A DNA stretch of 38,674 nucleotides from positions 184,791-223,464 of IMG/VR virus record IMGVR_UViG_3300021400_000048. One strand, written 5' to 3'. Origin of the DNA: a virus (Duplodnaviria; Heunggongvirae; Uroviricota; Caudoviricetes). Under the pieces are notes generated by a model. It did not search any database. It saw only the letters and a program-made list of their open reading frames with translations, and was not told where the DNA came from. This document shows positions 1-38,253 of the stretch, piece by piece (within the stretch, counting starts at the first letter, position 1; each line of letters starts with the position of its first letter). The position numbers and the translations under genes were made by a program.

Positions 1-612
1 TAATGGCTCTACTAATAAAGAGCCTTTATTAATCATTGTTCTAACTTTATTTTCACCACAATGATCAATAAATGGTCCTAAGAATGGAAGTAGCTTATCA
101 ATAACTTCACCTGGTAATGCACCTAAGTCTTTTGTATTTGCTACATCAACATTATTTCTAATTCAAATTATTTTTTCAAATTTTCCATGATTTAGTGCTT
201 CAAGACCTGCAGCAACAAGTATCATTGTTTTACCTGTTCCTCAAGTGCCACATAATAATTTAACTGTAGTATCACCGTCTTTCACTAAATTAAAAGCACA
301 TATTTGTTCATCATTTCGTGGCATATAAACATCATTATTTTTCTTGGTCGATGTTCGTTTTTTCTTTTGATTGTCAGGAATGACTACTTCTTTTTCTTCC
401 TCTCGTTCAATTTTTATAGTATTTCTACCAATTTTTTTAAGCTTTCCAGCTTTTTTAACATATTGAGCTTCAAGTTCATTTTGAGTATTATATATTAATA
501 AATACTCATTTTCTAAAAGCTCAAAAGGAACGACTTGATCTGACATAAAATCAACTCACTCTTCTGCAGTTGGAGTTCATTTTTTTCAGCCTGTGTACTT
601 TTGTTCTATCAT
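1..612 (-). CDS. phoH: PhoH-like ATPase (3' end outside window; TGA=Trp)
   Basis: AAGGAG RBS then ATG at 612. Reading TGA as W gives MIEQKYTGWKKW...NDEQICAFNL...LLCGTWGTGKT...KIIWIRNN...DLGALPGEVIDKLLPF, with a Walker A and the PhoH LGxLPG motif. 5 in-frame TGA. Confidence 0.88.
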
Positions 613-631
613 AGAAACTCCTTATATAAAA

Positions 632-664
632 AATTAATTGAAGCTATAAAAGCTTCAATTAATT
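632..664 (-). terminator. Inverted repeat / intrinsic terminator overlapping a late-type promoter motif
   Basis: AATTAATTGAAGCT-5 nt loop-AGCTTCAATTAATT, followed by a T-run on the minus strand, just after the 678 stop. Confidence 0.6.
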
Positions 665-670
665 TAGCAA
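660..670 (-). promoter_or_regulatory. Putative phage late promoter TTGCTAAATTA (copy 1, upstream of phoH)
   Basis: Identical 11-mer in five intergenic regions, each ~20-70 nt upstream of a start codon. Confidence 0.6.
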
Positions 671-677
671 TTATTAA

Positions 678-1148
678 TTAGGCTAATTCGCGTCTTCCAT
701 TAATATAATCTAAGACTAAAATATCAGTTCTAATTAGCTTTAATAAGGCTTCACAAGCAGGAAAATCTTCATTTTTAAAATAATTATTTAAAACTTTTGT
801 TATTTCTTCAGCTCGTGCTTCTTTTAAAAATGCTTGTTTATTATCAGTAAGCTTTTTACTGTATAGAATAATTTGTGTAAGTAAACAAGCAAGTACTGTT
901 AAAATTTCATCTTTTTCTTTCTGCTCTTTTAATAAATTTGTATACAATGGTGATTTATTTTTATTATGGCTTTTTCTAAGCATTTCATAAAAATTAATAA
1001 CTTCAATTCCTTGATGAGCAGCAATAAATTTTAAAGTGTCAATAGGTACTTCTTTTGCTGTAGCAAGTTTTAATATTTGTTGATTAATGTTAACACCATT
1101 ATCTTCTAATTTTACTAAAATAGACATGCAATCTTCTTTTGTAATCAT
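678..1148 (-). CDS. Hypothetical protein (helical, ~156 aa), downstream of portal
   Basis: Open frame; ATG at 1148 follows a GAAAGGGA RBS-like sequence (ORF track starts at 1166). Confidence 0.75.
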   Translation of the reverse strand: MITKEDCMSILVKLEDNGVNINQQILKLATAKEVPIDTLKFIAAHQGIEVINFYEMLRKSHNKNKSPLYTNLLKEQKEKDEILTVLACLLTQIILYSKKLTDNKQAFLKEARAEEITKVLNNYFKNEDFPACEALLKLIRTDILVLDYINGRRELA

Positions 1149-1175
1149 ATAAATATTCCCTTTCAAAAACTTATA

Positions 1176-5307: not shown

Positions 5308-7650
5308 TTATTTTTGGCTTTCTTCAGATTCTTTTTCTTTTTTCTTTCTGCCACCAGTTCCAGTAATAGGATTTTTGTTAGAGCCTTTTTTAAATTTTCC
5401 ACGATCTTTTGCCCATTGGTTAATAGTATCAATTAAGTTAGTATCAGTTTCTAAATTAGTATCTTCTGGAACTAGATTATCTTCTATAGCATCGTCTGCA
5501 GGAATTCCATATAATTTAGGAAATATTAACTTTAAGAAAGGTTTTTTCATATGTTCAGCAGCATAATTACAATAGTTCATAATAACTGATGAAACTTTCA
5601 TTATTCAAGAACCATTAGCTATACATAATAAAATATGTTTACATCCCTTACCCTTATCATTATTTGGATTAGTAATACCTCTACCAGGACCTGGGTCTTT
5701 TGAAGTGTCATCAACACTGTAATTGTTTATAATTGATCAATGTGCAAAACGATATTGAAAATCTTCACATGTACATTTTACATAAACATTTTTAGTATTA
5801 AATACTTTTGTTAATGATTGTAGAACAGTCTTGAATTCAAATTGATTATTATGCTGTTTAATATGTCTTGCAATTTCTTCAACAACACCTTCAAGCTTTA
5901 TTGTTACAGTATATTCATCAGTTTCACCTTGTACAGGAATTTTTATTTGAAGAATATCTTGTTTAAAGAACTCGTTCATATTAATTTGATTGTAGCTTTT
6001 TACTTGTGTAGAAACTTTAGAATATTTTTTTCTTTCTCATCTATTTTTGCCACGCTCTTTATTTTTATATTCACCAGCTTTTTTTGAGGCATTTGCAAGC
6101 TGAGCTCTAGTATCTTCTAATAAGCTTTCATATTTTAAAACTTCTTCATCGCCTAAATCACATACTGGACATTCACCAGCATCATTTAAGCGTGTACCAC
6201 AAGTTTGACAATATTTTATTTTAGAATCTTCAATTGATGCTGGATCAATATCTGTAAAGTCAATATCTTTATAATTAATATCTTTTTCGCCTAAAACTTT
6301 AACTTTTTCTTCTTTGATTTTAAAATTTGCCCCAGCAGATCTATCATAGCCATATGCTTTTGCAGCTTGAAACTTTAAATTGTTTATAGCTTTAGCCAAT
6401 GAAACTGCCATTGTCTTTAATTTTAAATTGCCCATATATGTTGAAAATCTATAAACTGGGCCATCATATGTATAACAATGATAATCTGCTTTACTATATT
6501 TTTCAGGCAATGTTTTAGGGTCTATTCTAGTGCCGCTAAGTATTAGTTTATTATCAAATAAAATATAACAAATATCACCACGTGAGCTTTCACCAAAATT
6601 AGCATATTTTATACAATTATAATTTTTTTCCTTTAAGAATTGTACTAATAGCTTTAATGCTAGTTTTTTATCTTGTGTTGCACGTATTTTTTCAAGTGTA
6701 TCAAGATCAGCATAGTTTAGATTATCTATATTTACTACACTATTATCTACATTATCTTTTCAATTATTTCCTTCTTCATCAGTACCAAAAGTCGCACCAT
6801 ATACATTTTTATTCTTAATTTTATTAATTAATAATATAGCAATTTCATTTGCACTTCAATCAAGAATATCTATATCAAAAGAAGCTGGTTTTAAATTCTT
6901 TGCATCTAATATATATTTATATAAGTTGCCTTTTTTAAAGTCAAGTCCTCTATTAGTTGCTAAGTCTTTGCAAGTTTCAATAGTTGTTGATAAATGAATT
7001 CCTTGATAATTTGGCTTTATATTATCAAAACTTTTTGGGCTTCAATGATATGCTATTATTTCAGATAATTCTTCATCGAGTGGGTGTGTTTTATAAGCTT
7101 CAATAGCTTTTTTTCATTGAGTCTTAAATGATGGATCATTAATTACTTCATTAATTTTATATCATTTAGCTGTAGATTTCATTGATTTATCTTGATCAAC
7201 TTTATCAACATCACCAGTATATTTGCCATCATACTTAGCAATAATTAAACAAGTATAATAATTATACCACCATTCCTCTTCAGGAACATTTTCTTTAACT
7301 CAGTCTTTTACTTCATTGTGACATTCACAATAGTCAAATTTTGTATCAACTGCTTCTTTAACATTAATATAAACTTCTTCTTGTGCTTCACGAATAGCTG
7401 CTTGCAATGGCGTTTCATTTTCTTCAAGCCCACCACCAGGCAAACTAAATACACCTGGTTCATCTGCTTCTTCACCAAGTAAAATTTCATTGTCATTTAA
7501 AATAATGATACCAGCGCGTAATCTTGATTTTTTACCATTAAAAATAATAGTTGCATTACAAGTACTATCCTTAGGATTAGTTCAGTATGTAATATCTTCA
7601 TAATCCCAAGTACGCTTATTTATATTTACTAATTCTTCTAATAAAAGCAT
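5308..7650 (-). CDS. Multidomain protein: Nudix hydrolase + ADP-ribosyltransferase-like + Zn ribbon + SWIM-type Zn finger (780 aa; TGA=Trp)
   Basis: Single frame from ATG 7650 (AAGGAG RBS) to TAA 5308 with 10 TGA. Nudix box GGGLEENETPLQAAIREAQEEV; ART-like AYHWS...GIHLS...YNCIKYANFGE...YILFD; CQTC..CPVC; CTCEDF...GCKH. Confidence 0.82.
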
Positions 7651-7684
7651 AAGTATCTCCTTATGAAAGAATTTTGTTTACGTA

Positions 7685-7695
7685 TAATTTAGCAA
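7685..7695 (-). promoter_or_regulatory. Putative late promoter TTGCTAAATTA (copy 2)
   Basis: Repeated intergenic 11-mer, 35 nt upstream of ATG 7650. Confidence 0.6.
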
Positions 7696-7712
7696 ATATA
7701 TTTATTAAAAAT

Positions 7713-7740
7713 AAAAGGGGACTATTATAAGTCCTCTTTT
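7713..7740 (-). terminator. Intrinsic terminator
   Basis: AAAAGAGGACT-TATAAT-AGTCCCCTTTT hairpin plus T-rich tail at the end of the 7725..11039 gene. Confidence 0.65.
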
Positions 7741-10700
7741 TCTTTAATTCTACCACGAATTGTTCAATATCTTGGTTGTAGTCCTGTAAATACTGGACGA
7801 CTGAAATCAAATTTACCAGCAATTTTATCTAATTTTTCTACATAATCTAATTGACGTAATTGTCTTAATATATTATCAACATCAGATTCTTTAACTAAGT
7901 TAATAGTAAAATTATTATTATTATCAATAAGTACTTGATTATGAGCAATTCGTGAAATCTCGATTTGATAGTCTCTTCTTACACTATCATCTAATCTTTC
8001 TTCTAAGCTTTCTAAGCTTAATTCTTTAGATTTTAGCTCATTCTTTAAAGTTTTTAAGTCGTCTAAATATCCAAGGCCTCTAATCTCCTTGAATGTTAGA
8101 TTTTTTAATGAGTATTCAGACTCAGCAATGCCTTCTTTTCTAACTTCATAAATATCTTCAATATATTTTTCAATATCTTCAACAGTTGGGTTAGCTTTAA
8201 TTGTATTATATTTATCAATTCAAGGTTGAACTAGCTTATCTAATTCTGCTTGATCAATTTCAGGAATATCAGACACAGCAGGCTCTTTAATTCATTCATC
8301 ATTTAAAACTGAATAAATACCGGCTGAATTTAAAGCAGAAGTTTTACGTTCTTCAGTAATTTCATTATTATCAATTTGCTCTGTCTCTTCTGTTTCCACA
8401 AATAGCTCAACAGGGATACCCTTAATAATAGGATCAAACTTATTATTAAAAATACTACGATATGCAGAGTATAATAATGGATATAAATTATCAGGACAAT
8501 GTAATGATTCTGTTTCTGCAACTAAGTGCAAATCTAAGTCTGAATTTTCATTATAGTTATATGAACAGTTTGAGCCAACAATTTTAATATCTTTTAAATT
8601 AAACTTAATTTCATCTTTTTCTAGGCCATCAGTAAATTCTTTAGCAATAGCTAATAATTTCTCTCTTACTTCTGGTAAAAGTTTATTATTTGCATCAAAT
8701 AGTGCAGGATTTAAGGTATCATGTTTTTCTACTTTTTCTTCTAAGTCTTCCTTTGAATTAATGTTTTTTAAATAATTTTTGACATCACTATATTTAGGAT
8801 CATTTAAAATTTCAGCTAATTTACTAAAGTCTTCATCAGAAAAATTTTCATGATATCCATTAGCAAACATTGCTTTTCTTTGAGCATCAGCAGCTTTCTT
8901 AGTTTTAAATGTTCCATGAGTTCCTTCTTTGCCTTTATTAACTCATTTACCATCTTTTACTTTTTCAGTACCCTCTTCTAAACTTTCATTAGCATTATTA
9001 GAGTTTACTCGTTCAACGTTAGTTATATGATATTGTTTTCCAGAATTAATACTTCATTTATTAATAGTGTCGTCAAAAGCTTCTTTAGAATCATAATAAT
9101 AGTAAGAATTTACAGTTTTGCCACTTCAAGCATCTTGATAAGTAAAATAATAATTACCAGGACCAGATCATGCATTTTTTAGTTGTTCTTGTTCTTCTTG
9201 ATCTGATTGATTATTTACTTGACGTCAGCAATCAATATCTTGATTACTTAATTTACTAATATCTTCATTAATTAAATTAGCTTTTATTATATCATCTAAT
9301 TTTGCTTTTAAAGTATAAATATTTTTATCATATGCTATTAATACATTATCCTTATACGCACAATAATCTGTTATACCAGTATTTTTGTAATAAGGGCCGC
9401 TCATAGAAGATTCTTTTTTCTTATGTATTCTAATAAAACTTATTGGAGCATAAATATTATATCCATTATAATTAGAATTAAAAGTAAAATATTTATGATT
9501 TTTAATAACATCCTCAGTTTTAGGATGCTTAGAGCTGGCTGTTTTTCCTTTGTTAACTGAATATGCTCCAGTAGAATTTTTACTGTTATTAATTAATAAT
9601 TTTGCAGGGTCTACATCTTTTAATGTATCATCTTCACCAACAATATTAGTTGATTCGACTAAATCTTCATTTTGTTTTTCTTTAAAGTTGACAATTTGAT
9701 ATAAGACATCTTTAATATCTTGATCTGCTAATAGCTCATCGACAATTTTTTTAATTTTATTAAGTGGCACATTATGTACGCGAACTAATTCATTTTTTAA
9801 TATATCTACATAGTTTGCTTTTCTTTGTAGCATTGCATAAATTAAATATAAAAATGTAGTTCTTATGTTTTTTCCAGTAAGGCTTGTTGCTGGATTGTCT
9901 TTTACAAAAGCATAATCTGCATAGTGAAAATCATTTACTGTAAATTTTGGTAGTGATATAGGCATTAAGTCAGCAATCAGACCAAGATTCCCATAAATAT
10001 TTTTAAGTTCATTTTCAATATATGTTTTTGCTCTTGTTAAACTATTTTGAACACATATATTATAATTATATCTTACTTTTTCTGCACTTGCAGCACCAAC
10101 ATTAAAACCACGTGTACCATTGTTAAGTTGTTTCATTTTATCAAGTTGTGTTCAATATTCAAGTTTTGCTTCATTTAAATTATTCATATTAGCATTTCCT
10201 TTCATGTTTTCTTTATATCATCGACTGCTTTTACAAATATAGGCTGGACCACAATCTGTATTAACTTTAGTTGCCATTGATAAATCAGTTATATAATTAT
10301 TGCGACTAATTTCAATTTGTTTATCGCTAATTACATAGCGCCATGAAGCAAAATCTACTGCTGACTGCATTGGATTTTGCTTAAATTTAGTAATAAAATC
10401 TTTTGCTTCTTGTATAGTGGCAAATAAAGGCACATCACTCGGTAATTTATCATTAACAGTAGCCCCACGTACTACTATTTTATAGGTATCACCAATTTTT
10501 TTACCGAAAAATATGTGGCAACGACTTCCTGTGACCTTTTTTGTAGGATCTAGCGCAGTGAAGTCTTTTAAATAATATGTTATTATTTGAAAATATGGGG
10601 CATTTTGATTCTTAATATTATATTCAATTTCACTTTTTCTTTTTTCTCATGCTTGTTTAACAAGTATTTCTGGATTTGTAACATTTAAAGCAGCATATTT

Positions 10701-11039
10701 ATGATAGTTGTCTAAATACATCGAAACAAATTGACTACTACTTAGCGCCTTTATAATTGATAAAAGTTGATTAACTGTAAGATGATTTCTTCAATAGATA
10801 TCTGTTAGCGATTTTTTAATTCGCTCTGCTAAAGCAGGTCAGTCTAAAAGCATAGCTGCCATTAAGCGTCTAACACCTAAGCATAATATCTCTTGACCAA
10901 CCTGAGGATCCTGAGACATCAATTTAGTACTGTCTAATCATAGCATTTTACCATGCGTTTTAGCATCTAACACAGTTTTAAAATCTTCTTCAGTTGGTAC
11001 ACAGTTCTTTAAGGTATCAAAATCTTGTGAAAGTGTCAT
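7725..11039 (-). CDS. Large multidomain protein with C-terminal Pol-beta-superfamily nucleotidyltransferase (1104 aa; TGA=Trp)
   Basis: Open from ATG 11039 to TAA 7725 with 14 TGA. NTase motif IVGSNCSYNYNENSDLDLH (GS...DxD) and VELFVE, then EYSLKNLTFKEIRGLGYLD. Confidence 0.8.
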
Positions 11040-11061
11040 AATCAAATGCCCCTATAATTTA

Positions 11062-14000: not shown

Positions 14001-14700
14001 CTATTGGGCCATCTTCTAAGTGGTAGAAATTGCCAACTGTTCAAAAGCTACTTAATTTATCATTAATATTTGCTGTATCAAATAATGACATAATTTCAGA
14101 AAAGCGTTTTTTAGCTTGTTCTGTGCCAAATTTAATCTCGTCTTCAGCATGGTCAAGAAAATATTCTAAGTATTTTACTATGTCAAGTTCATCTTTAAGT
14201 GCATCTTCATAAGGATAATATTCATTTTCATCAGATAAATCTTTAGCATCTTTTGCTGCCTCTTTTTTATAGTCTTGAATAAGTTTATCTTTATTGTTGT
14301 CTTTTAGTAAACTTTTTGCCATAGCTATACCAAGATTCTCAATATCTACCCAATAATCCACATCATCTAAGTAATCATCTACCATAAAACTAATAGGTTT
14401 ATTAGCTTCGGTTAAATCTTCATGTAATTCAATACCCTTAGTATCTTTAAGTCATTTTTCAAATTCATTCCAATACTTTTCAGAATAAATTACATCACCT
14501 GCAAAATCTGGAAAGCCATTAGGATAACAAGATTTCATAAAGCCATCTTCGCCATAGACTAAATCATCTAAATCGACACCATATAGGTCAGAAAACTTTC
14601 TATAATAATCGCCAATTTCTTGAGATTGAGATTCGTTTAAACTTTCATCAACGTTATCAATATCATCTAAGTAAAATTCTAATAAACTTTTAGTATTCAT
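11062..14700 (-). CDS. Large acidic multidomain protein, probable virion/head-associated polyprotein (1212 aa; TGA=Trp)
   Basis: Four same-frame fragments joined; 15 TGA and no TAA/TAG. Zn ribbons CPYC..CREC and CCIC..CCDSC, a ferritin-like DE..A..Y/DEEKEH helix pair, and many LTE/LNE motifs. Confidence 0.78.
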
Positions 14701-14728
14701 ATAATCTCCTTATTATTTACTATAGTAC

Positions 14729-14768
14729 GATAGTACATCGGTGAAAGGAATAAGACCAATATACTATC
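14729..14768 (-). promoter_or_regulatory. 5' leader hairpin with an anti-Shine-Dalgarno-like loop
   Basis: 14-bp stem GATAGTATATTGGT/ACCGATGTACTATC (2 G-U pairs) with loop CTTATTCCTTTC, lying between the promoter motif and the RBS. Confidence 0.55.
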
Positions 14769-14771
14769 AAA

Positions 14772-14782
14772 TAATTTAGCAA
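14772..14782 (-). promoter_or_regulatory. Putative late promoter TTGCTAAATTA (copy 3)
   Basis: Repeated intergenic 11-mer. Confidence 0.6.
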
Positions 14783-14784
14783 AT

Positions 14785-14813
14785 AAAAAAGCCTAATTAT
14801 AATAATTAGACTA
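14785..14813 (-). terminator. Intrinsic terminator
   Basis: AGTCTAATTA...TAATTAGGCT stem followed by TTTTT on the minus strand. Confidence 0.6.
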
Positions 14814-14838
14814 ATTTTTTACTATTTTATTAATTAAA

Positions 14839-15399
14839 TTATTTAATGAAAGGATAGCCTTGATCATGAAGTCTTTCTTCTGTTGGTTCTGGATCATCAA
14901 AATCACAGAAATAGTCAAATGCACCTTCAAATTCTGGCTTAGCTGTATCATTATCATTATCATTAATAATAATTGTAACATCTTCATTTAAAGCTTCTTT
15001 AACATCTTCTTCGGGAATGTCTTCTTCAGGCAATTCTGGGGCCAATGTTTCTTCTTCTACTGGAGCAGGTTTTTCAACTTTTTCTTCTGGTTTATCAAGA
15101 CCTAAAACTTTAGCATCTGGAAGTTCTTCATTTAAAGCTTCTTTTAGGCTACCATTAGTTTCTTCTGGAACTTCAACATATTTTTTATCTTGCAAAATTC
15201 CTTGTAATTGGCCAATAGCAATTAAATAAGCATCAGATAATTCTTGCAAAACTTCTGCAACTTCTTTAGTATTTGTAAAACTTTGTTTAATTGCATCAAT
15301 ACTTGCTTTTATATTACCAACTTCTTCTCAGCCTTTTGAAATAAATTGAGTGATAAAATCAATTGGTAATTTTTCTTTTGATTCCTTTAAAATTTCCAT
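14839..15399 (-). CDS. Acidic hypothetical protein (186 aa; 1 TGA=Trp)
   Basis: AGGAGA RBS and ATG 15399; frame continues through the TGA in SKGWEE; EALNE motifs. Confidence 0.75.
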
Positions 15400-15409
15400 T
15401 TTATATCTC

Positions 15410-17377: not shown

Positions 17378-17386
17378 AAAAACTCC

Positions 17387-18484: not shown

Positions 18485-18502
18485 AAATAAATACTCCTAA
18501 AC

Positions 18503-19903: not shown

Positions 19904-19921
19904 GTTATATTCTCCCCTAAA

Positions 19922-24081: not shown

Positions 24082-24092
24082 TAATTTAGCAA
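24082..24092 (-). promoter_or_regulatory. Putative late promoter TTGCTAAATTA (copy 5)
   Basis: Repeated intergenic 11-mer immediately upstream of the AAGGAG RBS of the PDF-like gene. Confidence 0.55.
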
Positions 24093-24131
24093 ATTATTTT
24101 TTTAATATTTTAATAATTTAATAAAATAAAA

Positions 24132-24509: not shown

Positions 24510-24517
24510 AATAACTC

Positions 24518-25735: not shown

Positions 25736-25736
25736 A

Positions 25737-26066: not shown

Positions 26067-26076
26067 ATATTTTCTC

Positions 26077-27494: not shown

Positions 27495-27505
27495 AATTAA
27501 TTCTC

Positions 27506-29422
27506 CTAAATTACAAATACTTCACTGATACCATCAGAATTTTTAACTACTTTTAATTCAGAATCATAGCTTAACTCTAATTCGTCAGCATGATGTGAAA
27601 TAATAAAGACTGATTCAATATCACAAAGTTTTGTTGTTATTAAATTTAAAATATTTTCTGTAGCAACTTTATCTAAGTTATCAAAAATTTCATCAAGTAC
27701 TAAAATATTAGAGCTATAATTTGATTGAGTACTTAATAAGTCACGTAAGGCAAATTGAACAATTAAGTCTACTCTTTGCCTTTCACCACCTGATAAGTTA
27801 TCTAATAACTTATTACAATAAGAAATATTTAAATCATTTCCATCTAAATAAATTTCTAATTCATCAGTACCAAATACTACTTGACTATACTCTTTTGCTT
27901 TTTTGTTTAAATAAGCTATAATATTTACTAATAAATATCCACGAAAATCACGTTTAGCTAAAGCATCCATTTTTCTAATAATATCTAAATGATCACTTAA
28001 TATAGTACGTTGATCTGTATTACTAGTTATTATTTTATTTAAACGTTTAACTTCAGTTTCAAGAGCACCTTTTGTATTTTTTAAGTTATTAAAAGTTTGC
28101 TCTTCGTGTTCTTTTTCATATGTTAATTTTGCAAGGCCAGTATTTAGCTTTTGCAATTTAGTATTTAAAGTTAATTGTTCTGTTTGCAACTCAAACCCAT
28201 AATTTTTTAAAGTTGCTTGTTGAGACTTAATACTATTAATTGCATCATCATATTTATTATTAACAGTTTGCTTTTCAACATCTAATTTTTCTTGCAAAGT
28301 AGTCGTATCTGCCTGAACTTTATTAAGACTTTCTGTTAAAGTTATTTTTTCATTGTACTTTTTTTGTAATTGCTCTTCTTGTGCTGCTGTACTTGGTTTT
28401 TCTTTACCAGGAATTTTTTGGCCACAAGTTGGACAAATATCAGTAATAGCTTTTAATCGCTTAATTTCATTTTGCAATGCTGTACACTCACCAGTAATAG
28501 AATTTATATCAAGCAATATTTTTTGTTTTTCTGCAGCTTTATTATTTAAGCCTTCATTAAATCTATTAGTTACAGCTATAATTTCAGAACTTCTATTATT
28601 AGTAAAATTTAATAAATCATTGTTAGCTTGTTCTAAATAGCTATCATTTGTTTTAATTTTATCATTTATTTCATTTAGCTTATTTTGACAACTTATTATT
28701 TCATTATTTGTATCTAAGATTAATTTATCATAATCTGGACAAACACGTTGCTCTAATTGTTTTACTATACTACTAAGCTGAGCTTGGGCTGTAGATAATT
28801 GTGTATTTGCAACTAATAAAGCATCATCGACTGTTCTAATTTGACCTAAAATAATGTCTTGCCTTGCAGATATTCTATTTTTAACATCTTCAATCATAAA
28901 ATCTGAATTAGTTAGCTTTTCTAATAAATCTTTACGACCAGACGGCTTTAAACTTGAAAATTTTGTAGGTAGACCTTGTCCAAGAATTGCAGTTGTTGCA
29001 ATTAAATCTTTTGTTAAAGCAGGTAGTTGTTCGCCTAAGATTTTTTCACTTTCAGTAAAAGTTTTACCACTTAAATCAACATCATTTTTAACAATAGTTA
29101 AGTTAGACTTTGGTGCAAAAGCTCTTGTTATTATATAATGATCATTATCTACAGTTATATCAACAGTAGTATAACCCGTATTATCATCTGTAATATTAAG
29201 ATTTTTTAAATTCTTTTTTAATCCTTGAATTGTTTCACCTGTTATTGTGTAGCATAATGCTGACCATAAAAAAGATTTTCCTGAGCCATTAGATAAAGCA
29301 TTATCTTTTTTATATTTGTTTTCACCAATTACTGAGCAAAAACCTTTGTCTTTTAAATCAACTTCAGCATGATTATAGCTACCAAAATTATGCAAAATAA
29401 CTTTATTTCATAAAACATTCAT
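27506..29422 (-). CDS. SbcC/Rad50/T4 gp46-like recombination ATPase (638 aa; TGA=Trp at codon 5)
   Basis: MNVLWNKVILHNFGSY start after GGAGG; Walker A NGSGKS, zinc hook CPTCGQ, signature LSGGE, Walker B LVLDE, IISH. Confidence 0.9.
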
Positions 29423-29825
29423 CAGTTACCCACGCCTCCATATAATGTGCTATATTGTTCCATAATAATGTCCAATATAACTTTGATTTTTTTAATAAGT
29501 TAGCTACCTGCTTATCTTTTTCCTCTTGAGTTAAGTTAATATCATTTAAAATAATATCTTGCTTAAGGAAACAATTTTTATAATTAATATAATTATCTAG
29601 CACTAAAGTCAATGATAAAAACATATTATTAATAGTTTCTTGATTAACAACTAATTGTTTAGTTAATGCGACTGTATCTTGCATATATTGTAAGTACAAC
29701 ATCAGTGTCTCGAGCCCAATAACAAAATTTGGCTCCATATCTAGCATATTTTTAGTACATTTATTAAATTCTTTTTTATAATAATTATAAAGTTTTCTAC
29801 AAATTTTTTTATTATTTTTTAGCAT
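29403..29825 (-). CDS. Hypothetical protein (140 aa)
   Basis: ORF with 3 TGG Trp; possibly leaderless just downstream of a TATAAT motif. Confidence 0.68.
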   Translation of the reverse strand: MLKNNKKICRKLYNYYKKEFNKCTKNMLDMEPNFVIGLETLMLYLQYMQDTVALTKQLVVNQETINNMFLSLTLVLDNYINYKNCFLKQDIILNDINLTQEEKDKQVANLLKKSKLYWTLLWNNIAHYMEAWVTDECFMK

Positions 29826-29836
29826 ATTTTTATATT

Positions 29837-29849
29837 ATATTATACAATA
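29837..29849 (-). promoter_or_regulatory. SigA-like motif TATTGTATAAT
   Basis: Repeated intergenic motif. Confidence 0.5.
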
Positions 29850-29868
29850 TTTTTAACTTTATTTTAAT

Positions 29869-30156
29869 TTACATTTCTTGTGCTTCAACTTTAATACTTG
29901 TTGGAAATCTAAGCTTTTGCCCACATTTTACACAATAATTTATTTGCTTTGAAATTTCATTTTCGCAAGTTTCAAAAACTTGCTGCATTGTTGTTCCAGA
30001 ATTAAACTGAGCAACAACATGCCCGCAATTTGGGCATATTAACAGTGGAACTTCAATAACTCCACTGTTTTGCGGAATACCATTTATCATAACTTGCTGC
30101 GTATATTGAGTTTGAAATTGCAGATTACAGCATTTGCTTATATTGCGTTCTTCCAT
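29869..30156 (-). CDS. Double Zn-ribbon protein (95 aa)
   Basis: CPNCG and CVKCG motifs. Confidence 0.7.
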   Translation of the reverse strand: MEERNISKCCNLQFQTQYTQQVMINGIPQNSGVIEVPLLICPNCGHVVAQFNSGTTMQQVFETCENEISKQINYCVKCGQKLRFPTSIKVEAQEM

Positions 30157-30162
30157 AAATTA

Positions 30163-31191
30163 TTACTTGCAAATTTCAGCAAGCTCCTCTTCAAGTATTT
30201 GACTGTCAGTAAATTTTACTTTGCATAGTTCAATAAATTTTTCGATTGGATTTACATTTAACTCAAGTTTTTCAGCAGATTCATCTGAAGTGCTTGTAGC
30301 TTTTTGAAAAACTGTAATAATACGATAATTAACAATTCTATTAGCTTCATCGACTAAACATTGTTTTAAATCATTTACATACTTATCTAAACATTTAATA
30401 GATAAAACTGAATTATATTTAAGCTTAAAAATTTGCTCTAAATCTTGCTCAGAATTGATTTCTATCTTATAAAAATTATAAGCATATGGATTCTCAATAA
30501 AATCAATATGGCCAGAATTTGTGTCTAATATTAAAACATTATGAGAATACTTTGTAGCATCTTCTGAAAAGTTAAAACCAGTTAAATTTCCAATATTTAA
30601 AATTCGATCTTTTTTAACCCAAGTTCCATTATGTAAATGTCCATTAATAAACAAATTACATTTATTTAATATTTCTTCTTGTTCAAAACCAAGTGTTGTA
30701 ATAACTGGCCCCATTTGAATTCCAGCAATAGTATTGTGTGATAATACAATATCTGCATGACCTGTAAATAGCTCTTCAAGAGTTACTTTTGTCAGTTCAG
30801 AAAAATATGGAACAAATACAATGCTTTTGCCTTCAATATTTTTAATTTCTACTCTATTAATAATTTCAAAATTTGGTTTTTCTAATACTTTAACTGAGTT
30901 GTAACATAAATCACCTTGACCAGATTCATGATTACCAACAATAAATCTGTGTGGCAATGAATTCCATTGAATATCTTTTAAAGCAGTAATTTCTTCTTCA
31001 TATAAGTCAGGCTTATTAAAAAAATCACCTAAGCACCACACTTCACTACAACCTTTTTCTAAAGCAACTTTTTCAAGCCAATTAATAGATTTAATTTGAT
31101 TCTCTAAGCGCTCAAAATACTTATTACCACGCCTATTTAAAATAGAACCAACTTTACAAAAGTGATTATCTGAGAATAATAAAACTTTCAT
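30163..31191 (-). CDS. SbcD/Mre11/T4 gp47-like nuclease (calcineurin-like phosphoesterase)
   Basis: SDNH, GDFF, GNHE, SH and GHLH motifs; near its SbcC partner. Confidence 0.88.
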   Translation of the reverse strand: MKVLLFSDNHFCKVGSILNRRGNKYFERLENQIKSINWLEKVALEKGCSEVWCLGDFFNKPDLYEEEITALKDIQWNSLPHRFIVGNHESGQGDLCYNSVKVLEKPNFEIINRVEIKNIEGKSIVFVPYFSELTKVTLEELFTGHADIVLSHNTIAGIQMGPVITTLGFEQEEILNKCNLFINGHLHNGTWVKKDRILNIGNLTGFNFSEDATKYSHNVLILDTNSGHIDFIENPYAYNFYKIEINSEQDLEQIFKLKYNSVLSIKCLDKYVNDLKQCLVDEANRIVNYRIITVFQKATSTSDESAEKLELNVNPIEKFIELCKVKFTDSQILEEELAEICK

Positions 31192-31200
31192 TTTATCTCC

Positions 31201-31773
31201 TTAATTTATAACATAATTAACAACATCAGTGGCCATTTGAGTTAGATTTACAAGTGGAAAATCTACTTTAATTTTATGACAATCTATCATATTTTGGTCA
31301 CTTGAATAAATAATTGCCAATGCTTGCTCATCTGTTAAATTAAAAAACAATTTTGCACGCATATAAGAGCTTAGCCCAACTGAGCCAAAAGAAACTCTAT
31401 TTTCTCTGACTCTATATGCACCTTGAGTTTCCCAAGTATTTGTTTGTTCATTTTTAACATTTCTTGTAAAATATTCATATAGTTCTGCTTTATAAAGGTT
31501 ACTTAATAGACCTACTAAAATAATATCAGCATCTTTATAACGGCCAGGATAATAAGCACCACATAAATTTTTTAGCTCGTAATATAAATTTAAGCTATAT
31601 TCACATAAACCACCTGCATAACAACCACCAAAAGTTGATTGAGCTGTAGCTGGCTGCTCATAAAAATTAACCTCATCTAAGTATTTAGCAAAGTTAGTTA
31701 AATCAATATTTAATGTAGATAATAAACTAAAAAATTCACATTTATTTTTGTATATCTGTTCTTGTGTTAGCAT
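31201..31773 (-). CDS. HD-domain (YhaM-like) homologue with degenerate active site
   Basis: PA...GCYAGGLCEYSLNLY and GLLSNLYK correspond to the usual HHAY.GGL.EHS and LLHD.GK, but the His/Asp ligands are replaced. Confidence 0.7.
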   Translation of the reverse strand: MLTQEQIYKNKCEFFSLLSTLNIDLTNFAKYLDEVNFYEQPATAQSTFGGCYAGGLCEYSLNLYYELKNLCGAYYPGRYKDADIILVGLLSNLYKAELYEYFTRNVKNEQTNTWETQGAYRVRENRVSFGSVGLSSYMRAKLFFNLTDEQALAIIYSSDQNMIDCHKIKVDFPLVNLTQMATDVVNYVIN

Positions 31774-32407
31774 TTAATCTTGTCCTCCTATCTAAAGCCC
31801 ACATTTGTCTATAATTTGGAATATTTGTATCAATATGAGCTTTACCATCAGCATCATAAATTCTGTATGTTGGAATATCTTTTACTTTTAATCTATGTTG
31901 TGTTCTAAATTTATATTTTTGGGCAGTAGTTATATTTAATTCATTTAAGCTTTTATTGAAGCAGTCACTACAAACATAGCCCATCCAACCACCTATACGT
32001 TTATAACGAGCAGGTTTGCCGCAATCTTCACAATAGCAAATTGATAATTTTTCATAATATCTTAATACTTCATCTACTTTTTGAGAAGTGCCACTACCAT
32101 CTAAAACTAAAGCACCCCACTTTTCTTTAATATCGAAAAAATAGAATGTCCTTAATAATTTTTCTTCCTTTAAAACTTTTCTTAGATCTTTTGTTAATTG
32201 CTTACCAAATGCTTTTTTCCAGCCAGGTGAAATTAAATTTTCTTCTGAAGAAGTCCAACATTTTTTACCTGTCCAAACATTTTTTGGTTGCCAAAATGGA
32301 TATTTCATAAAATAAAAGAAATAATAAATTGCTCTAAATGGAAGCCATATTGTATGCTTAAAAAAATATTTTAATTTAAAATATTTCAATTTAGTTTCTA
32401 ACTTCAT
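31742..32407 (-). CDS. Phage hypothetical protein with Zn ribbon
   Basis: IKEKWGAL...SICYCEDCGKP...CSDC; 8 Trp, all TGG. Confidence 0.75.
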   Translation of the reverse strand: MKLETKLKYFKLKYFFKHTIWLPFRAIYYFFYFMKYPFWQPKNVWTGKKCWTSSEENLISPGWKKAFGKQLTKDLRKVLKEEKLLRTFYFFDIKEKWGALVLDGSGTSQKVDEVLRYYEKLSICYCEDCGKPARYKRIGGWMGYVCSDCFNKSLNELNITTAQKYKFRTQHRLKVKDIPTYRIYDADGKAHIDTNIPNYRQMWALDRRTRLNANTRTDIQK

Positions 32408-32409
32408 AG

Positions 32410-33159
32410 TTATTCCTCCTCAATTTTTTTACAGCAATTACCAACAGCATAAACAGTTGGAATGATAGTTGTTTGATTATCTTTATTTACTAAGATATAA
32501 TTATCTTCATCTTTTTCTAAAAAACCGTTAACTGTAGGAAAGCTATCAGGTAATTTATCATCTAACCAATAAATATCATTACAAATAATTTCATCAAAAT
32601 TATCTAATTCAATTTTATATGTAGTGTTTATTTGTATTAAATTACTGACATTTGTATTTGTTAAATACTGTAAGTTCTTTTTATTTGCGATTTTAAGCCT
32701 GATTCCTGGCTCATATTGCGTTTTTATATTTTTATCTATAAAATATACTAACTTGCACTTTTTTGCAATATCAGTCGCTAATTGACCTGCCTTATTACTA
32801 TGGCCAACAACTACAATAATATCATCTTTTGCAATTTCTTTGTGTGGATACTTGTAATAAAAATTTGTAAGTATATGATTTTTTATTGGGACTGTTTCGG
32901 TAGCAATTACTAAATGTGTACATAATAATAATTTACCATTTGTTAGCTCTAATGTAATTAAGCCGTGATTAAAACTTGCATATTCTACAGTGTCTGTAAA
33001 GTAGTCAACTCCATCAAAAGTTTTAATATTTTCTGGATAGCTTTTACTAATAAACCCAATATTAGCTGTAAGATTTTTCTTTAAGTAGCTTAGACCAGCA
33101 TTACTTGCCCCAACAATAATTGTATTGTAAATATTATTTTTTAATAGTTGTTTTGTCAT
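32410..33159 (-). CDS. Thioredoxin-reductase-like (FAD/NAD(P) Rossmann) homologue, degenerate
   Basis: TIIVGASNAG, LVIAT, VVVGHSNKA and DNYILVN...TIIPTVYAVGNC follow TrxB order; no redox CxxC. Confidence 0.65.
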   Translation of the reverse strand: MTKQLLKNNIYNTIIVGASNAGLSYLKKNLTANIGFISKSYPENIKTFDGVDYFTDTVEYASFNHGLITLELTNGKLLLCTHLVIATETVPIKNHILTNFYYKYPHKEIAKDDIIVVVGHSNKAGQLATDIAKKCKLVYFIDKNIKTQYEPGIRLKIANKKNLQYLTNTNVSNLIQINTTYKIELDNFDEIICNDIYWLDDKLPDSFPTVNGFLEKDEDNYILVNKDNQTTIIPTVYAVGNCCKKIEEE

Positions 33160-33181
33160 ATTTATTAACCTTTCTTATATT

Positions 33182-33194
33182 ATATTATACAATA
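33182..33194 (-). promoter_or_regulatory. SigA-like motif TATTGTATAAT fused to a terminator tail
   Basis: Repeated motif directly following the T-run of the 33195-33222 hairpin. Confidence 0.5.
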
Positions 33195-33222
33195 AAAAAG
33201 CCAGAAATTTAAAATTCCTGAC
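33195..33222 (-). terminator. Intrinsic terminator
   Basis: GTCAGGAATT...AATTTCTGGC-TTTTTT just after the cca stop. Confidence 0.65.
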
Positions 33223-33223
33223 A

Positions 33224-34642
33224 TTAATTCTTAGTGTAAGTTTCTAAAATGTGCTTAACTAAAATTTCCTTTTTATTTTCAAATTTTTCTTCCAAAACAT
33301 TTGTTAAACAATCTTCTAAAATAACTTTAAATTTTGGTCCTGGTTTATAGCCAAGCTTAATTAAGTCATTACCATTAACTGATAGATCTTTTAAAGAAAA
33401 GCATTCTTGCTCAGCTCTAATTTCTTCCAGAATGTCTAAATATTCCTTAATAAAAATAGGCTTTAAGTTACTATCTATTAATAATTTTTGATTATGAGTA
33501 TGTCTATCTGCATCTTTTAAATCAATTAACTTTTTAAATAATTCATATTTATCAATACTTTCTGAAGTAATAAAATTATTTATATTATTTAATATCTTTT
33601 TAACTGATTTCTTAGAATAAGCAATTTCAGCATCGTGATAGAGTATTAAACATATAACTTGTTTAATTATGTCATTTGGATATTTTAAAGTTTTTAAACA
33701 GTCTTCAGCTATTGAAGCACTTACGGCTGGATGGTCATAAAAATGTCCGTTAATTTGTCCATCAATAATTTCTTCTGTATAACAAGTTTTCTTACCAATA
33801 TCATGAAATAATGCAGCAAGTCTTGTAACTAGATCTTTTGGGCATAAAGTAATTACTTGTGAAGTATGTTGTGTTAGTACTTGATAAATATGCCATTTAT
33901 TGTTTTGAATTATAAATAAGTCCATCAACTTAGGAACTTTTACTGCTACTAACTTAATAAAGTCTTCAAAATATTCATTAATATTATTACTTAATAAATA
34001 CTTATCTAATTCATCTCTAATACGTTCATTAGAGATATTTCTGATTAAATGTAGATTTCTATCAATTACATATTTTGGTATTACAATTTCACCATTTAAT
34101 TGTGCAGCAAATCTATAAGCTCTTAAAATTCTTAAACCGTCTTCATTAAATCTTTGTGCTGGATTGCCGACAGTTTCTATTTTAATTTTTTCACCACACA
34201 AATCTTTTATGCCATTAAAATAATCATAAATACGTCCATTTAAATCTACAGCTAAAGCATTAATAGTTAGGTCTCTTCTAGCTAAGTCTTCTTTTAGAGA
34301 TGAAGTAAATTCTACTTTATCTGGATGTCTATTATCAGAATATTCACCATCAATTCTAAAAGTAGTTACTTCTATTGGATAACTTTCATATAAAATTGTA
34401 ATTGTTCCATGCTTTAAACCTGTTGGAATATATTTTAAATTTTGTTCTTCGCAAAGCTCAATCATTTGTTCTGGTAAAGCATTTGTTGTTAAATCATAAT
34501 CGTGTGGTTGCTTTTCTAAAAGTAAATCACGAACAGCTCCACCAACAATATAGATTTCATAGTTAGCTTCTTTAAAAATATTCATAACAGCTTTAATTTC
34601 TACTGGAACTTGTGTTAAATCTATCATATAATTTAAAGTCAT
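33224..34642 (-). CDS. cca: CCA-adding tRNA nucleotidyltransferase with HD domain
   Basis: VGGAVRD...DYD, EVTTFR, DLARRDLTINALA, RFNEDGLRILRAYRFAA, ALFHDIGK. Confidence 0.92.
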   Translation of the reverse strand: MTLNYMIDLTQVPVEIKAVMNIFKEANYEIYIVGGAVRDLLLEKQPHDYDLTTNALPEQMIELCEEQNLKYIPTGLKHGTITILYESYPIEVTTFRIDGEYSDNRHPDKVEFTSSLKEDLARRDLTINALAVDLNGRIYDYFNGIKDLCGEKIKIETVGNPAQRFNEDGLRILRAYRFAAQLNGEIVIPKYVIDRNLHLIRNISNERIRDELDKYLLSNNINEYFEDFIKLVAVKVPKLMDLFIIQNNKWHIYQVLTQHTSQVITLCPKDLVTRLAALFHDIGKKTCYTEEIIDGQINGHFYDHPAVSASIAEDCLKTLKYPNDIIKQVICLILYHDAEIAYSKKSVKKILNNINNFITSESIDKYELFKKLIDLKDADRHTHNQKLLIDSNLKPIFIKEYLDILEEIRAEQECFSLKDLSVNGNDLIKLGYKPGPKFKVILEDCLTNVLEEKFENKKEILVKHILETYTKN

Positions 34643-34672
34643 AAGCTGTTCTCCCTTCTATATTTTTATTAT

Positions 34673-35041
34673 TTATCTGCTTCTATCCCAACCACCACGA
34701 GAAAATCTTGGATCAAAATAAGCAGTTGACATCATACGAACTTGGTCTTTCATATTTTTAAATCCATATTCTTCTTTGGTTGCAGGCAAAGTTTCTAATT
34801 GAGAAATAATTGCATAAAGCTCATGTAAGTCCATATTATACCCTGAATCAATTGGCTCAAAACCATCACCTAAATCAGTGCATCTATGAAAAAATCCTTC
34901 ATCAGTTTGATAATAAGTAATTTTTACATTTGGGCCAAGACCTTGAACAGTTACTTTATTTTCTGGACTTAATGCAAAATACTTTAATAATGCTGGTAAA
35001 AATTCAATTTGATCAAAATAATCTATAGTTAAATTTTTCAT
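34673..35041 (-). CDS. Hypothetical protein (~122 aa)
   Basis: ORF; ATG 35041 after AGGTG RBS (ORF track starts at 35050). Confidence 0.7.
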   Translation of the reverse strand: MKNLTIDYFDQIEFLPALLKYFALSPENKVTVQGLGPNVKITYYQTDEGFFHRCTDLGDGFEPIDSGYNMDLHELYAIISQLETLPATKEEYGFKNMKDQVRMMSTAYFDPRFSRGGWDRSR

Positions 35042-35042
35042 A

Positions 35043-36020
35043 TTATTCACCTATATTAATAAGATTTTCTATATAAAATCTTCCTTCGCTAACAAAACAA
35101 GGAATATCATAATCTAAAATCCATTTAGATATTTCTTTAACTTTAATTTCTTCACCTTTAATTCCTACTTCCCCATCTATTTTATTTAAATAAAATATTG
35201 GATAAAAGTAAAAACCAAGATTATCAAAATAAAATTGGCCTATTCTATCTTTATAAGTAATTTGAGAATTATTTTCTACAACTTGTCCGTCATCTAAAAG
35301 ATATTTTACATCTTTAATGCAGCAAGTTCCACGCTTTTGTGGCGTTGGTAAATTACCCCAGATAATGCCCTTTTCAGTTTCTAACTTAGCTACTAATTCT
35401 TTACAAGATTTGCCCTCTAATTCTTTTTGTGAATAGTTAGCTTGTGCTACAGATAAAATAGAATTTCTTTCTGCATCTTTTTGTCGCCAAAGAACACAAT
35501 TAGTAACTTCTTCTTTTGGAATATTAAATACTCTTGCATCAAATACAGCACCTTTATTCAAAGCTTTAGTATATGCTGAGTAATAATTTTCAGCTAGCGT
35601 TTTTGTTCCAAACTTACCTAATTCAACAGCTTTATTATATATAGCTTCTTGTAAATTTTTACTAAAGTTTCTATTAAAAGCCAGTGTAGCCATTGAGGCA
35701 GAAATTGAAGTCATTTTTTGAACTTCATAATCAAACCATGCAGAAGTATCTAATTTATTATAATCAACTAATACTAATGTAATTTCATCAGATTGAGTAT
35801 AACCTAATACGCAACCTTGAATATTTTCACATAAATATTTCATTGTATCTTGCATAGTTTTCATAAAAATATCATCAAATGGTTTTTTAAAGCCTCTTGT
35901 AAAAGTATGAAAAGCTTTACCATCTAATCTAATAATTACAGGCATTCTACGAGTAAGTTTTATTTTAGAGACTTCCTCATAATATGTCTTCATTCTATTT
36001 CCTAAATTATCCTTAACCAT
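35043..36020 (-). CDS. Thg1-like protein (tRNA-His guanylyltransferase / 3'-5' polymerase)
   Basis: RLDGKAFHTFT, YTQSDEI, FDARVF, WRQKDA..NSI. Confidence 0.92.
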   Translation of the reverse strand: MVKDNLGNRMKTYYEEVSKIKLTRRMPVIIRLDGKAFHTFTRGFKKPFDDIFMKTMQDTMKYLCENIQGCVLGYTQSDEITLVLVDYNKLDTSAWFDYEVQKMTSISASMATLAFNRNFSKNLQEAIYNKAVELGKFGTKTLAENYYSAYTKALNKGAVFDARVFNIPKEEVTNCVLWRQKDAERNSILSVAQANYSQKELEGKSCKELVAKLETEKGIIWGNLPTPQKRGTCCIKDVKYLLDDGQVVENNSQITYKDRIGQFYFDNLGFYFYPIFYLNKIDGEVGIKGEEIKVKEISKWILDYDIPCFVSEGRFYIENLINIGE

Positions 36021-36053
36021 AGTTGACTCCTTTTCTAATATTTATTTTGTATT

Positions 36054-36536
36054 TTATTGTCTTCCTCAAATATCACTTTCATAATCATAGTAATCATCTT
36101 CATCGAATTCGTCTCTGATTCGAATTTCATCTCGTTTTCGAATTTCATTTCGTTTTTTCTCTTTTTCGATTGCATCATTAATTACATGCCAAGCTTCATA
36201 GCCAGAAACGCATTTGTAATTTTTTCCTTTTCTTTCATACCATTCTTTTTGTTTATCAGTTAATTCATGAGCATAAACATATCTTTCATTGAGGTCATCA
36301 AATTTGACTATCTCGTAAGTATCTATTTCATAATCAAAATCATCTTCATTGTATGAAGTAGTATAGCTTCCTAAAATAACATAATTAGGTCCAAAACCAA
36401 TGACATTATAAGAATGATACCTATTATAAATATATTTGTAATCTGAATCATCACGACAAACCATACATGGTATTAAGTTCATAAGTTCTTCATATGACTT
36501 ATCTTTAACTATGTCTTTAAAAAGAATTTTATCCAT
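36054..36536 (-). CDS. Hypothetical protein (ends at TGA 36066 under code 11, or at TAA 36054 if TGA=Trp)
   Basis: AGGAGG RBS before ATG 36536; ...YESDI-TGA-GRQ-TAA. Confidence 0.68.
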
Positions 36537-36765
36537 TTTTTCCTCCTGACTCAAGATTGTTTTCAAAGTTTTTTGATATTTCAGAATTATAATCTTCTGG
36601 TTCATAATTAATTATAACATCTTGTCCATAAGCTTCATAATTTTTAATTCTACCACAAATTGCACAATATTGCATTGTTTCAATAATACCAGCTTCATCA
36701 TAATAATTTTTAGAAATAAGATTTCTATCGCAATTATGTAGTATTTTATTTCTATAATCTGTCAT
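36529..36765 (-). CDS. Hypothetical protein (78 aa, HxC...CxxC)
   Basis: ORF with GAGG RBS. Confidence 0.68.
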   Translation of the reverse strand: MTDYRNKILHNCDRNLISKNYYDEAGIIETMQYCAICGRIKNYEAYGQDVIINYEPEDYNSEISKNFENNLESGGKNG

Positions 36766-36776
36766 TTTTACCTCTT

Positions 36777-37007
36777 TTATTCTTCGTCAGTATAGTTAGA
36801 GTTAATCCAATTACTATTTTCTTCTTTTTTAACTAATTTCATAGTAATAGTTGGTATACCGGATTCATCTATACTACACATATGGACGAATTTTAAATCA
36901 GGGTGATCTTTAAGATATTTCTCTGTTAATTCTTTTGCATGATTATCATAAAAGTCTTTAATTTTTTTATTTAGCTCACAAACTTCTTTAGGTTTTTTAT
37001 CTAACAT
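36777..37007 (-). CDS. Hypothetical protein (76 aa)
   Basis: ORF with AAGGA RBS. Confidence 0.65.
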   Translation of the reverse strand: MLDKKPKEVCELNKKIKDFYDNHAKELTEKYLKDHPDLKFVHMCSIDESGIPTITMKLVKKEENSNWINSNYTDEE

Positions 37008-37021
37008 AATTTTATTCCTTT

Positions 37022-38041
37022 TTATAATTCAAATTTATCATCAAATTCACCGTTAATAATTCTTTTATTAACTGACATAACCCACTCTTCAATTTTTTTC
37101 ATATCAGGCTTTTCAGGTAATTTTGAAGTTTCATAAGCTTCATTCATTCTTTTATCTAATGAATCAACCATTTCATAAAATTCTTTTGTCATACTACCAT
37201 TTTCATCCATATACTTACCATTTCTGATATCCATTAATAAATCATGGTCTTTATCACGATAAGTATGAACTTCACCTGTTTCTAACATTTCAATACACAT
37301 TGATAATAATCTAACAAGATGCATAGCATGTTTATTCAAATGTGCGTCATCTTTCTTTCTATTTCTATTTAGCAACTCTTTATAGTTTCTTGTGGTGTTA
37401 GAAACTGTTGCATAGAAATCTTCAAATTCGCCACTTTCAATATCAATATCTAATTTAAATCTTAATTTACCAGCTTCGTCGACATAAGCAAAAGCAGGAT
37501 TAATTTCCGTATTATGTTGATTATTAAAAGTAGTTAATGCACTTTGTAAAGAAACAGAAATATGTTCATTCTTTTCTTTCTCAGGATAGTTATCGCGAGC
37601 TAAAGCATTTTGTAATCTTTTTAAGTTAGCTTTTGCATAGCCTCCAAATGTAAACTTGCATCTTTTACTTAAAAATAAATCTTTATGATCTAATAATTCT
37701 TGACCTAATTTAGAAACATATAAATATTGGTCTGGATTTAAACCAATAATTTCAACAATATTAGGATTATTTTGCATTAACAATTGAATCATTTTATTAA
37801 AAGCAAAAATAGTAGTATCAGTCTTTTCATTAATAAATTGTTCAAACTTTTGATAGCCAATTAATTCCTCTGGCTTTTCAATAGCAATACCTCTAATATC
37901 TAAGTCAGATGTTGGAACATTAGTACCATAAGCATGTGAACCACCTAAACCTAATAAAATAATATTATTACCTAAATGTTCATTTTTATATAAAAAATCA
38001 TAATCTGGATTTTCTTTAATTAATTTTTTGTAATCTGTCAT
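37022..38041 (-). CDS. Nucleotidyltransferase, Nuc-transf/RlaP-like (Pol-beta superfamily)
   Basis: GGSHAYGTNVPTSDLDIRGI, NNPNIVE, KHAMHLVRLL, LLMDIRNG. Confidence 0.88.
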   Translation of the reverse strand: MTDYKKLIKENPDYDFLYKNEHLGNNIILLGLGGSHAYGTNVPTSDLDIRGIAIEKPEELIGYQKFEQFINEKTDTTIFAFNKMIQLLMQNNPNIVEIIGLNPDQYLYVSKLGQELLDHKDLFLSKRCKFTFGGYAKANLKRLQNALARDNYPEKEKNEHISVSLQSALTTFNNQHNTEINPAFAYVDEAGKLRFKLDIDIESGEFEDFYATVSNTTRNYKELLNRNRKKDDAHLNKHAMHLVRLLSMCIEMLETGEVHTYRDKDHDLLMDIRNGKYMDENGSMTKEFYEMVDSLDKRMNEAYETSKLPEKPDMKKIEEWVMSVNKRIINGEFDDKFEL

Positions 38042-38043
38042 AA

Positions 38044-38253
38044 TTATTCCTTCATGTATTTCTTTTCAAATTCAGCTTCGAGAACTTCTTTATTTTCATT
38101 ATAAAAGTTTTCAATATCATCAGCAGTATATCCTAAACACATAAAAATACAAGTTGATGGATTTGAAAAGCCTCCTTGGCAAGAGCCACAGCATCTAAGC
38201 TGCTTTTTGTCTGCAAATTTGTTAACTAAAAATTCTAACCATAAATTATGCAT
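38044..38253 (-). CDS. Small Cys-rich hypothetical protein (69 aa)
   Basis: ORF with GAGG RBS; CCGSC...CIFMC. Confidence 0.62.
   Translation of the reverse strand: MHNLWLEFLVNKFADKKQLRCCGSCQGGFSNPSTCIFMCLGYTADDIENFYNENKEVLEAEFEKKYMKE

Follow-up and report, generated by a model that had tools for sequence, protein, structure and literature searches.

A probable late sigma factor loaded with TGA codons in a recoded T4-like gut phage

In phage T4, the gene for the late sigma factor gp55 lies next to genes 46 and 47, the protein is made in the middle phase of infection, and the late promoter consists of a single element. This article concerns a gp55-like gene in a stretch of 38,674 nucleotides (the window), which forms bases 184791-223464 of the complete 223,464-bp virus record IMGVR_UViG_3300021400_000048, a genome with terminal repeats and 29% GC. 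The phage is a T4-like jumbo gut phage that reads TGA as tryptophan, and the gene for this probable sigma factor is the one most reliably loaded with TGA across its family. Recoding of TGA to tryptophan by a phage's own tRNA is already known; the TGA loading of the probable late sigma factor is new here. A literature search of incomplete coverage turned up nothing published on the recoding of a late sigma factor.

Jade phages are TGA-recoded gut phages with a code-change module that includes tryptophanyl-tRNA synthetase (TrpRS); release factor 1 (RF1) within that module, upstream of the lysis cassette, is reported for just two Jade genomes (Borges et al., 10.1101/2021.08.26.457843). The recoding described here is of this known, Jade-like kind. 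As in the Jade clade, the genome is of the ~200+ kb class, reads TGA as tryptophan, has a predicted Firmicutes host, carries a TGA-free TrpRS with a UCA tRNA, and has recoded structural modules scattered over its length. Unlike the Jade module, that of this genome comprises tRNA-UCA, Lon and TrpRS without RF1 and lies away from the lysis genes. One relative, G002, resembles the Jade arrangement in having TrpRS and RF1 directly ahead of a TGA-rich peptidase. Sigma factors, promoters and an exemption of the capsid gene are unmentioned in the text of Borges et al. (10.1101/2021.08.26.457843).

Two Jade TrpRS:tRNA pairs insert tryptophan at UGA in E. coli, competing with release factor 2 (RF2) (Seki et al., PMC12636597). 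Like the AP1 and HF2 pairs of that study, the present pair combines a phage TrpRS with a UCA tRNA, whose discriminator base is G73, like that of AP1; near L6, F40 and V147 this TrpRS has a similar residue numbering, with an offset. Its sequence differs from theirs, and its insertion of tryptophan is a prediction. Dual-coded blocks have been described in crAss-like phages (Pfennig et al., 10.1101/2022.06.29.495998). There, as here, either code gives the same reading of early genes and late genes require the alternative code, but the split here follows promoter class on one strand and not strand-switch blocks.

TGA as a tryptophan codon, its suppressor and the host

Over the whole genome, code 4 raises the coding density to 0.90 from 0.66 under code 11, a gain that exceeds the 5% criterion for stop-codon-recoded phages. 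In topoisomerase IA, TGA codon 107 stands opposite tryptophan in 71/71 homologs having the motif, at the conserved position singled out in a preliminary description of the window. Across the genome (G000; relatives are numbered G001, G002, G003, G005, G009, G010 and G011), TGA sites fall opposite a tryptophan codon at 131/179 positions in G001 and 61/103 in G002. The remainder face mostly Phe or Tyr, with Gly once in each of these relatives and Cys at 1/179, and TGA and TGG exchange in both directions between genome and relatives. TGA in the window is thus a sense codon for tryptophan, as first described. Code 25 (TGA as Gly) and selenocysteine decoding were rejected on the single Gly and single Cys among the 179 sites and on the G73 and short variable arm of the tRNA; assembly error, pseudogenes and code 15 were also rejected as causes of in-frame TGA.

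The 24 genes of positions 1-29422 contain 82 TGA and 22 TGG codons, and the 13 genes of 29403-38253 contain 28 TGG and one near-terminal TGA (Fisher p=2.5e-15), in agreement with the earlier manual counts of ~80/~22 and ~28. The lone TGA (36066..36068, minus strand) is codon 180/183 of the gene at 36054-36605, four codons ahead of TAA, and is probably a true stop with a backup stop. A-ending synonymous codons make up 0.79-0.92 in the TGA-free block, so that AT bias would favour TGA there, as the preliminary description had argued. TGA-free genes terminate in TAA or TAG and read the same under both codes, and each of the three probable TGA stops has a backup stop no more than 4 codons on. In this genome T is the next base after 0.17 of TGA codons versus 0.37 of TGG codons, a weak hint of RF2 competition that is not relied on here.

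The suppressor machinery had been placed outside the window. A search for tRNA-Trp(TCA), TrpRS and RF1 located the first two elsewhere in the genome (Table 1) and found no RF-1 domain anywhere in it. The tRNA-Trp(UCA), Lon and TrpRS genes are all TGA-free and are arranged alike in G000 and G001. The tRNA forms a clean cloverleaf with G73 and a short variable arm, and it starts 5-6 nt past its own -10 box. This promoter is middle-class, so the code change would start in the middle phase; the earlier proposal of a mid-infection switch is upheld to the extent that the suppressor system is phage-borne and would begin to act then. RF1 is present in G002 and G010, the latter a recoded genome of 52% GC that has RF1 without TrpRS. 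The UCA tRNAs at L001:11081-11155 (G000/G001), L059:14931-15006 (G003) and L366:2900-2995 (G011) differ in their bodies: that of G000 is similar to a relative's tRNA-Cys and that of G011 has a long variable arm, which suggests separate origins.

Among 399 Bacilli genomes compared by TrpRS, the best matches (58-61%) came from six genomes, all of code 11. RF2 is carried by 5/5 of those searched, three have GGDEF proteins, Mur ligases occur in the family, and one best-matching family also matches the phage Lon and RtcB at ~64-70% DNA identity. In three near-complete relatives of the phage TGA is a stop codon, and TrpRS, RF1 and a UCA tRNA are all absent. Judging from these gene donors and the standard-code relatives, the host is most likely a code-11 member of the Bacilli, as had been proposed. 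RFN20-type Bacilli appeared as the TrpRS neighbour in a first tree, but wider sampling moved the phage to a different family; both were quick trees.

It is highly improbable that the host natively uses code 4 and that the TGA-free genes are recent imports or codon-optimised. The TrpRS donor does lie among Bacilli, at a tree position near the code-4 Mycoplasmatales. However, genomes with TGA inside the TrpRS gene (code 4) are only 47-52% identical and fall in separate clades, relatives use TGA as stop, and the code state changes at least 2 times on the sigma tree (six by parsimony). The phage also bears a MurE-like ligase and cyclic di-GMP (c-di-GMP) riboswitches. Moreover, the TGA-free genes are a conserved syntenic replication core; TGA avoidance in these genes is shared by relatives and thus old, which disposes of the recent acquisition that the preliminary description had named as an alternative for the TGG-only block.

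Promoter classes and the distribution of TGA

Three strand-biased intergenic motifs recur in the genome. The first is a host-type promoter with -35 and -10 elements, whose copies cluster at 119-139 kb; the second, wATTGTATAAT, is a -10-only element ahead of replication, tRNA and code-change genes (36 coding-strand copies versus 3 opposite); and the third, TGCTAAATTA, precedes virion genes (27 versus 2) and is common to recoded and standard-code relatives. These presumably mark early, middle and late classes, respectively. When each gene is assigned to its nearest upstream motif, a rough rule under which some virion genes count as middle-class, internal TGA/TGG counts are 0/36 for early, 53/281 for middle and 286/94 for late genes. 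Structural genes contain 113 TGA/33 TGG versus 4/57 in replication genes.

This division redraws the map of the window. The TGG-only block had been called early, but it is middle-class by promoter. Positions 1-29422 had been taken as one late block, but 24153-29825 sits behind a middle-class promoter. Within that segment the sigma gene has 5 TGAs, SbcC 1 and a 78-residue open reading frame (ORF) 2.

The strong signal in these counts is that TGA is selected against in the early, middle and bulk genes, a pattern that fits incomplete suppression. The TGA fraction of core late genes is 0.77, slightly under the 0.86 A-ending level of the other two-codon boxes, so no selection for TGA in late genes is demonstrated. 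The major capsid gene has 0 TGA/42 TGG over 12 recoded loci. These values bear on the idea, proposed by Borges et al. and echoed in the preliminary description, that TGA acts as a lock distributed over the structural and lysis genes and opened by a mid-infection switch. In favour, 54/60 Trp-containing late-class genes have TGA, isolated late-promoter genes within TGA-free regions are TGA-rich, and the peptidase that follows TrpRS and RF1 in G002 is TGA-rich. However, TGA use shows no excess above AT bias, the capsid gene is never recoded, this genome lacks RF1, late genes are already under their own promoter, and in weakly recoded relatives the late genes are mostly TGG while sigma is recoded. 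A lock on the late genes as a class is therefore improbable.

Probable homing endonuclease genes (L005:15334-15945 and 17479-18153, minus strand) are TGA-rich, have their own late motif and lie amid TGA-free genes; one sits between two NrdD pieces, and Rfam gave no intron match. A 470-residue gene (L011:9311-10723, minus strand; 0 TGA/7 TGG) has a middle motif amid late genes, is patchy in relatives in either orientation, and is probably mobile.

The sigma gene and a gate on the late programme

The 274-residue protein is identified through a structural model of its homolog P0121 (54% identical; predicted local distance difference test score 92). The top structural match of the model is in the T4 gp45-dependent late transcription complex, whose chain F (Z 8.1, root-mean-square deviation 3.1, 95 aligned) we take to be gp55. 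Some ~29/50 structural match rows are sigma factors or their complexes, and the model shows the sigma domain-2 fold at a middling Z. The gene adjoins gp46/47-like genes, and this position, together with the single-element late motif, adds to the fold match in supporting the protein as a probable gp55-like late sigma factor. It resembles T4 gp55 in its predicted domain-2 fold, gp46/47 adjacency, single-element late promoter and presumed middle-phase production. It differs in its size, with a longer helical C-terminal part, in the motif and in a translation that would depend on a suppressor tRNA. No sigma region-4 domain was found in the genome, and Foldseek against viral models returned only homologs without a name, including one of Bacillus phage SP-15, and weak sigma matches.

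The TGA codons of the gene are codons 3, 17, 186, 209 and 217. Of 101 non-redundant sigma loci, 42 have TGA in the sigma gene; in the 26 of these with full SbcC, sigma has 77 TGA/21 TGG versus 7/44 in SbcC (p=1e-14, a value that, like others for these related loci, overstates their independence). In SbcC, codon 5 is TGA both in this genome and in G001, and the gene is nearly TGA-free in other recoded relatives. When only late genes are used to call loci recoded, 13 loci qualify, and none of them has a TGA-free sigma; the counts are 40/12 for sigma versus 47/61, with sigma higher in 12 and equal in one. In weakly recoded genomes sigma ranks first of 34 families with a TGA fraction of 0.72, followed by terminase at 0.45, portal at 0.21 and capsid at 0, and in the recoded genome of 52% GC sigma has 2 TGA/0 TGG versus 10/52 in late genes. 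Codon 3 is TGA in 32/37 recoded Trp cases. Sigma is the gene most reliably TGA-loaded across the family, and it follows that, if its identity is right, the late sigma factor depends on suppression.

On balance we lean towards a functional gate of the late programme at this sigma factor, imposed by the code change. The host's own machinery would read the early genes, which have host-type promoters and no internal TGA. The tRNA-Trp(UCA), transcribed from its own promoter, and TrpRS would appear in the middle phase, and competition with host RF2 would leave each UGA only partly read. Genes whose products are required early or in large amounts, such as those for replication enzymes and the major capsid protein, are kept TGA-free. 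The sigma gene lies in a middle-class operon but carries several TGAs, the first at codon 3, and full-length sigma, hence transcription from TGCTAAATTA, would wait for suppressor to build up. With yield dropping at each UGA, late transcription would be delayed and no virions would be made until the code had changed. The code change would gate the late programme mainly at one regulator, and most other late TGAs would be tolerated drift.

Several points weigh against this gate, beyond the relatedness of the sigma loci. The structural evidence for sigma was obtained on a homolog, and its Z is middling for a helical domain; Foldseek against PDB gave no significant match, and searches of Pfam, PHROG and PDB sequences gave none either, including no gp55 profile match. 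The link from sigma to TGCTAAATTA is by analogy, and the host is deduced from gene donors, a donor being no proof of a host. No suppressor tRNA was found in the recoded genomes G002, G009 and G010. Any delay may be brief, given that the tRNA and sigma are under the same class of promoter. Trp3 predates recoding, since it is TGG in standard-code relatives. Finally, pooled sigma TGA use (117/151) equals the A-ending expectation of 111, so that selection for TGA in sigma is not demonstrated.

In a rival reading without regulation, TGG, once a suppressor is present, drifts to TGA under AT pressure wherever that is cheap, and sigma is TGA-rich as a low-abundance protein not required before the suppressor appears. 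It accords with sigma at the neutral level and late genes at 0.77 versus 0.86, with the greater AT-richness of recoded loci (GC 0.30 versus 0.35), with the exempt capsid gene and with the TGA-rich homing endonucleases, PhoH and MurE-like gene. We nevertheless consider it less likely than the gate. In all recoded lineages that supply data, the genome of 52% GC among them, sigma reaches that level ahead of any virion gene, and sigma would still depend on suppression even if its TGAs were neutral in origin. A stronger form of the gate is put forward tentatively, as possible but doubtful. It would be an AND gate in which suppressor tRNA and multi-TGA sigma mRNA must coincide, with the sigma TGAs selected as a threshold and bulk virion proteins spared.

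Genomic setting and implications

The features discussed are collected in Table 1. The genome carries T4-type portal, Gp23 capsid, sheath, tube and baseplate genes, and its nearest cultured matches are Firmicutes phages at ~30% identity, for example SP-15. The sequence occurs in gut metagenome runs, the named ones being goat and cattle, and a contig of the probable source run matches window positions 21000-28354 identically. As to the gene identities first given, PhoH, portal and topoisomerase IA were confirmed by Pfam, which also matched the CCA enzyme and Thg1. The terminase is probable from its Walker A/B motifs and position next to the portal; profile (Pfam, PHROG) and PDB sequence searches gave no match.

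Table 1. Positions of features in the window and, where stated, elsewhere in the genome
Feature	Position	Strand	Remarks
PhoH-like gene, 5' part	1..612	-	298 residues in genome; 6 TGA/0 TGG
T4-like portal, 667 residues	1176..3179	-	4 TGA/0 TGG
Probable terminase large subunit, 688 residues	3189..5255	-	8 TGA/3 TGG
Late block of large TGA-rich genes (780, 1106, 1212, 186, 655, 365, 466, 386 residues)	5308..21082	-	function mostly unassigned
Topoisomerase IA	21136..22950	-	TGA codon 107 (22630-22632) at invariant Trp position
Late promoter motif TGCTAAATTA	24082..24091	-	more window copies start at 21128, 14781, 7694, 669
Probable gp55-like late sigma factor, 274 residues	26670..27494	-	5 TGA, 0 TGG; candidate gate
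SbcC/gp46-like ATPase	27506..29422	-	co-transcribed, upstream of sigma
Middle-class motif wATTGTATAAT	29839..29849	-	heads operon of 140-residue gene, SbcC, sigma; more window copies start at 38283, 33194, 5293
13 middle-class genes (SbcD/gp47-like, FAD oxidoreductase, CCA enzyme, Thg1, RlaP-like)	29403..38253	-	28 TGG, no internal TGA
tRNA-Asp(GTC)	38333..38408	-	last of 29-tRNA set running on across contig end
RNA-repair set	L001:2913-4097; L006:1336-3681; window 33224-38041
TrpRS	genome 7623-8621		outside window
Lon	genome 8623-10995		outside window
tRNA-Trp(UCA), suppressor	genome 11081-11155		outside window

Several further observations concern the wider genome. The RNA-repair set is large and entirely TGA-free (RtcB, a Pnk/Rnl1 fusion, CCA enzyme, Thg1 and RlaP-like). 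A peptide deformylase-like gene (window 23334-24062, minus strand) has a late motif upstream and is kept in relatives. Window positions 38415-38674 (minus strand), upstream of tRNA-Asp, are ORF-free and gave no Rfam match. One late gene encodes 6300 residues with 100 TGA/39 TGG (L004:584-19486, minus strand), and a MurE-like ligase with 6 TGA/0 TGG closes a late unit (L003:12123-13454, minus strand). Two tandem c-di-GMP-I riboswitches (L001:18013-18206, minus strand; L046:1962-2149, plus strand) are kept in G001 and lie upstream of a 238-residue gene without assigned function, ~7 kb before the suppressor tRNA. In G005, a relative that uses the standard code, there is an unusual 89-nt tRNA whose 8-nt loop contains TCAC (L222:11666-11754, minus strand).

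Arguments over whether the recoding of stop codons regulates phage development or reflects tolerated drift have relied mostly on gene-class enrichment. This phage family offers promoter-defined timing classes, together with recoded and standard-code sister lineages. In addition, its TrpRS:tRNA-UCA is a new candidate pair of the kind already in use for genetic code expansion. Because the proposed gate lies at a single regulator, the sigma factor, a few synonymous changes would suffice to probe it. If true, the AND gate would be a single-gene mechanism by which recoding times infection.
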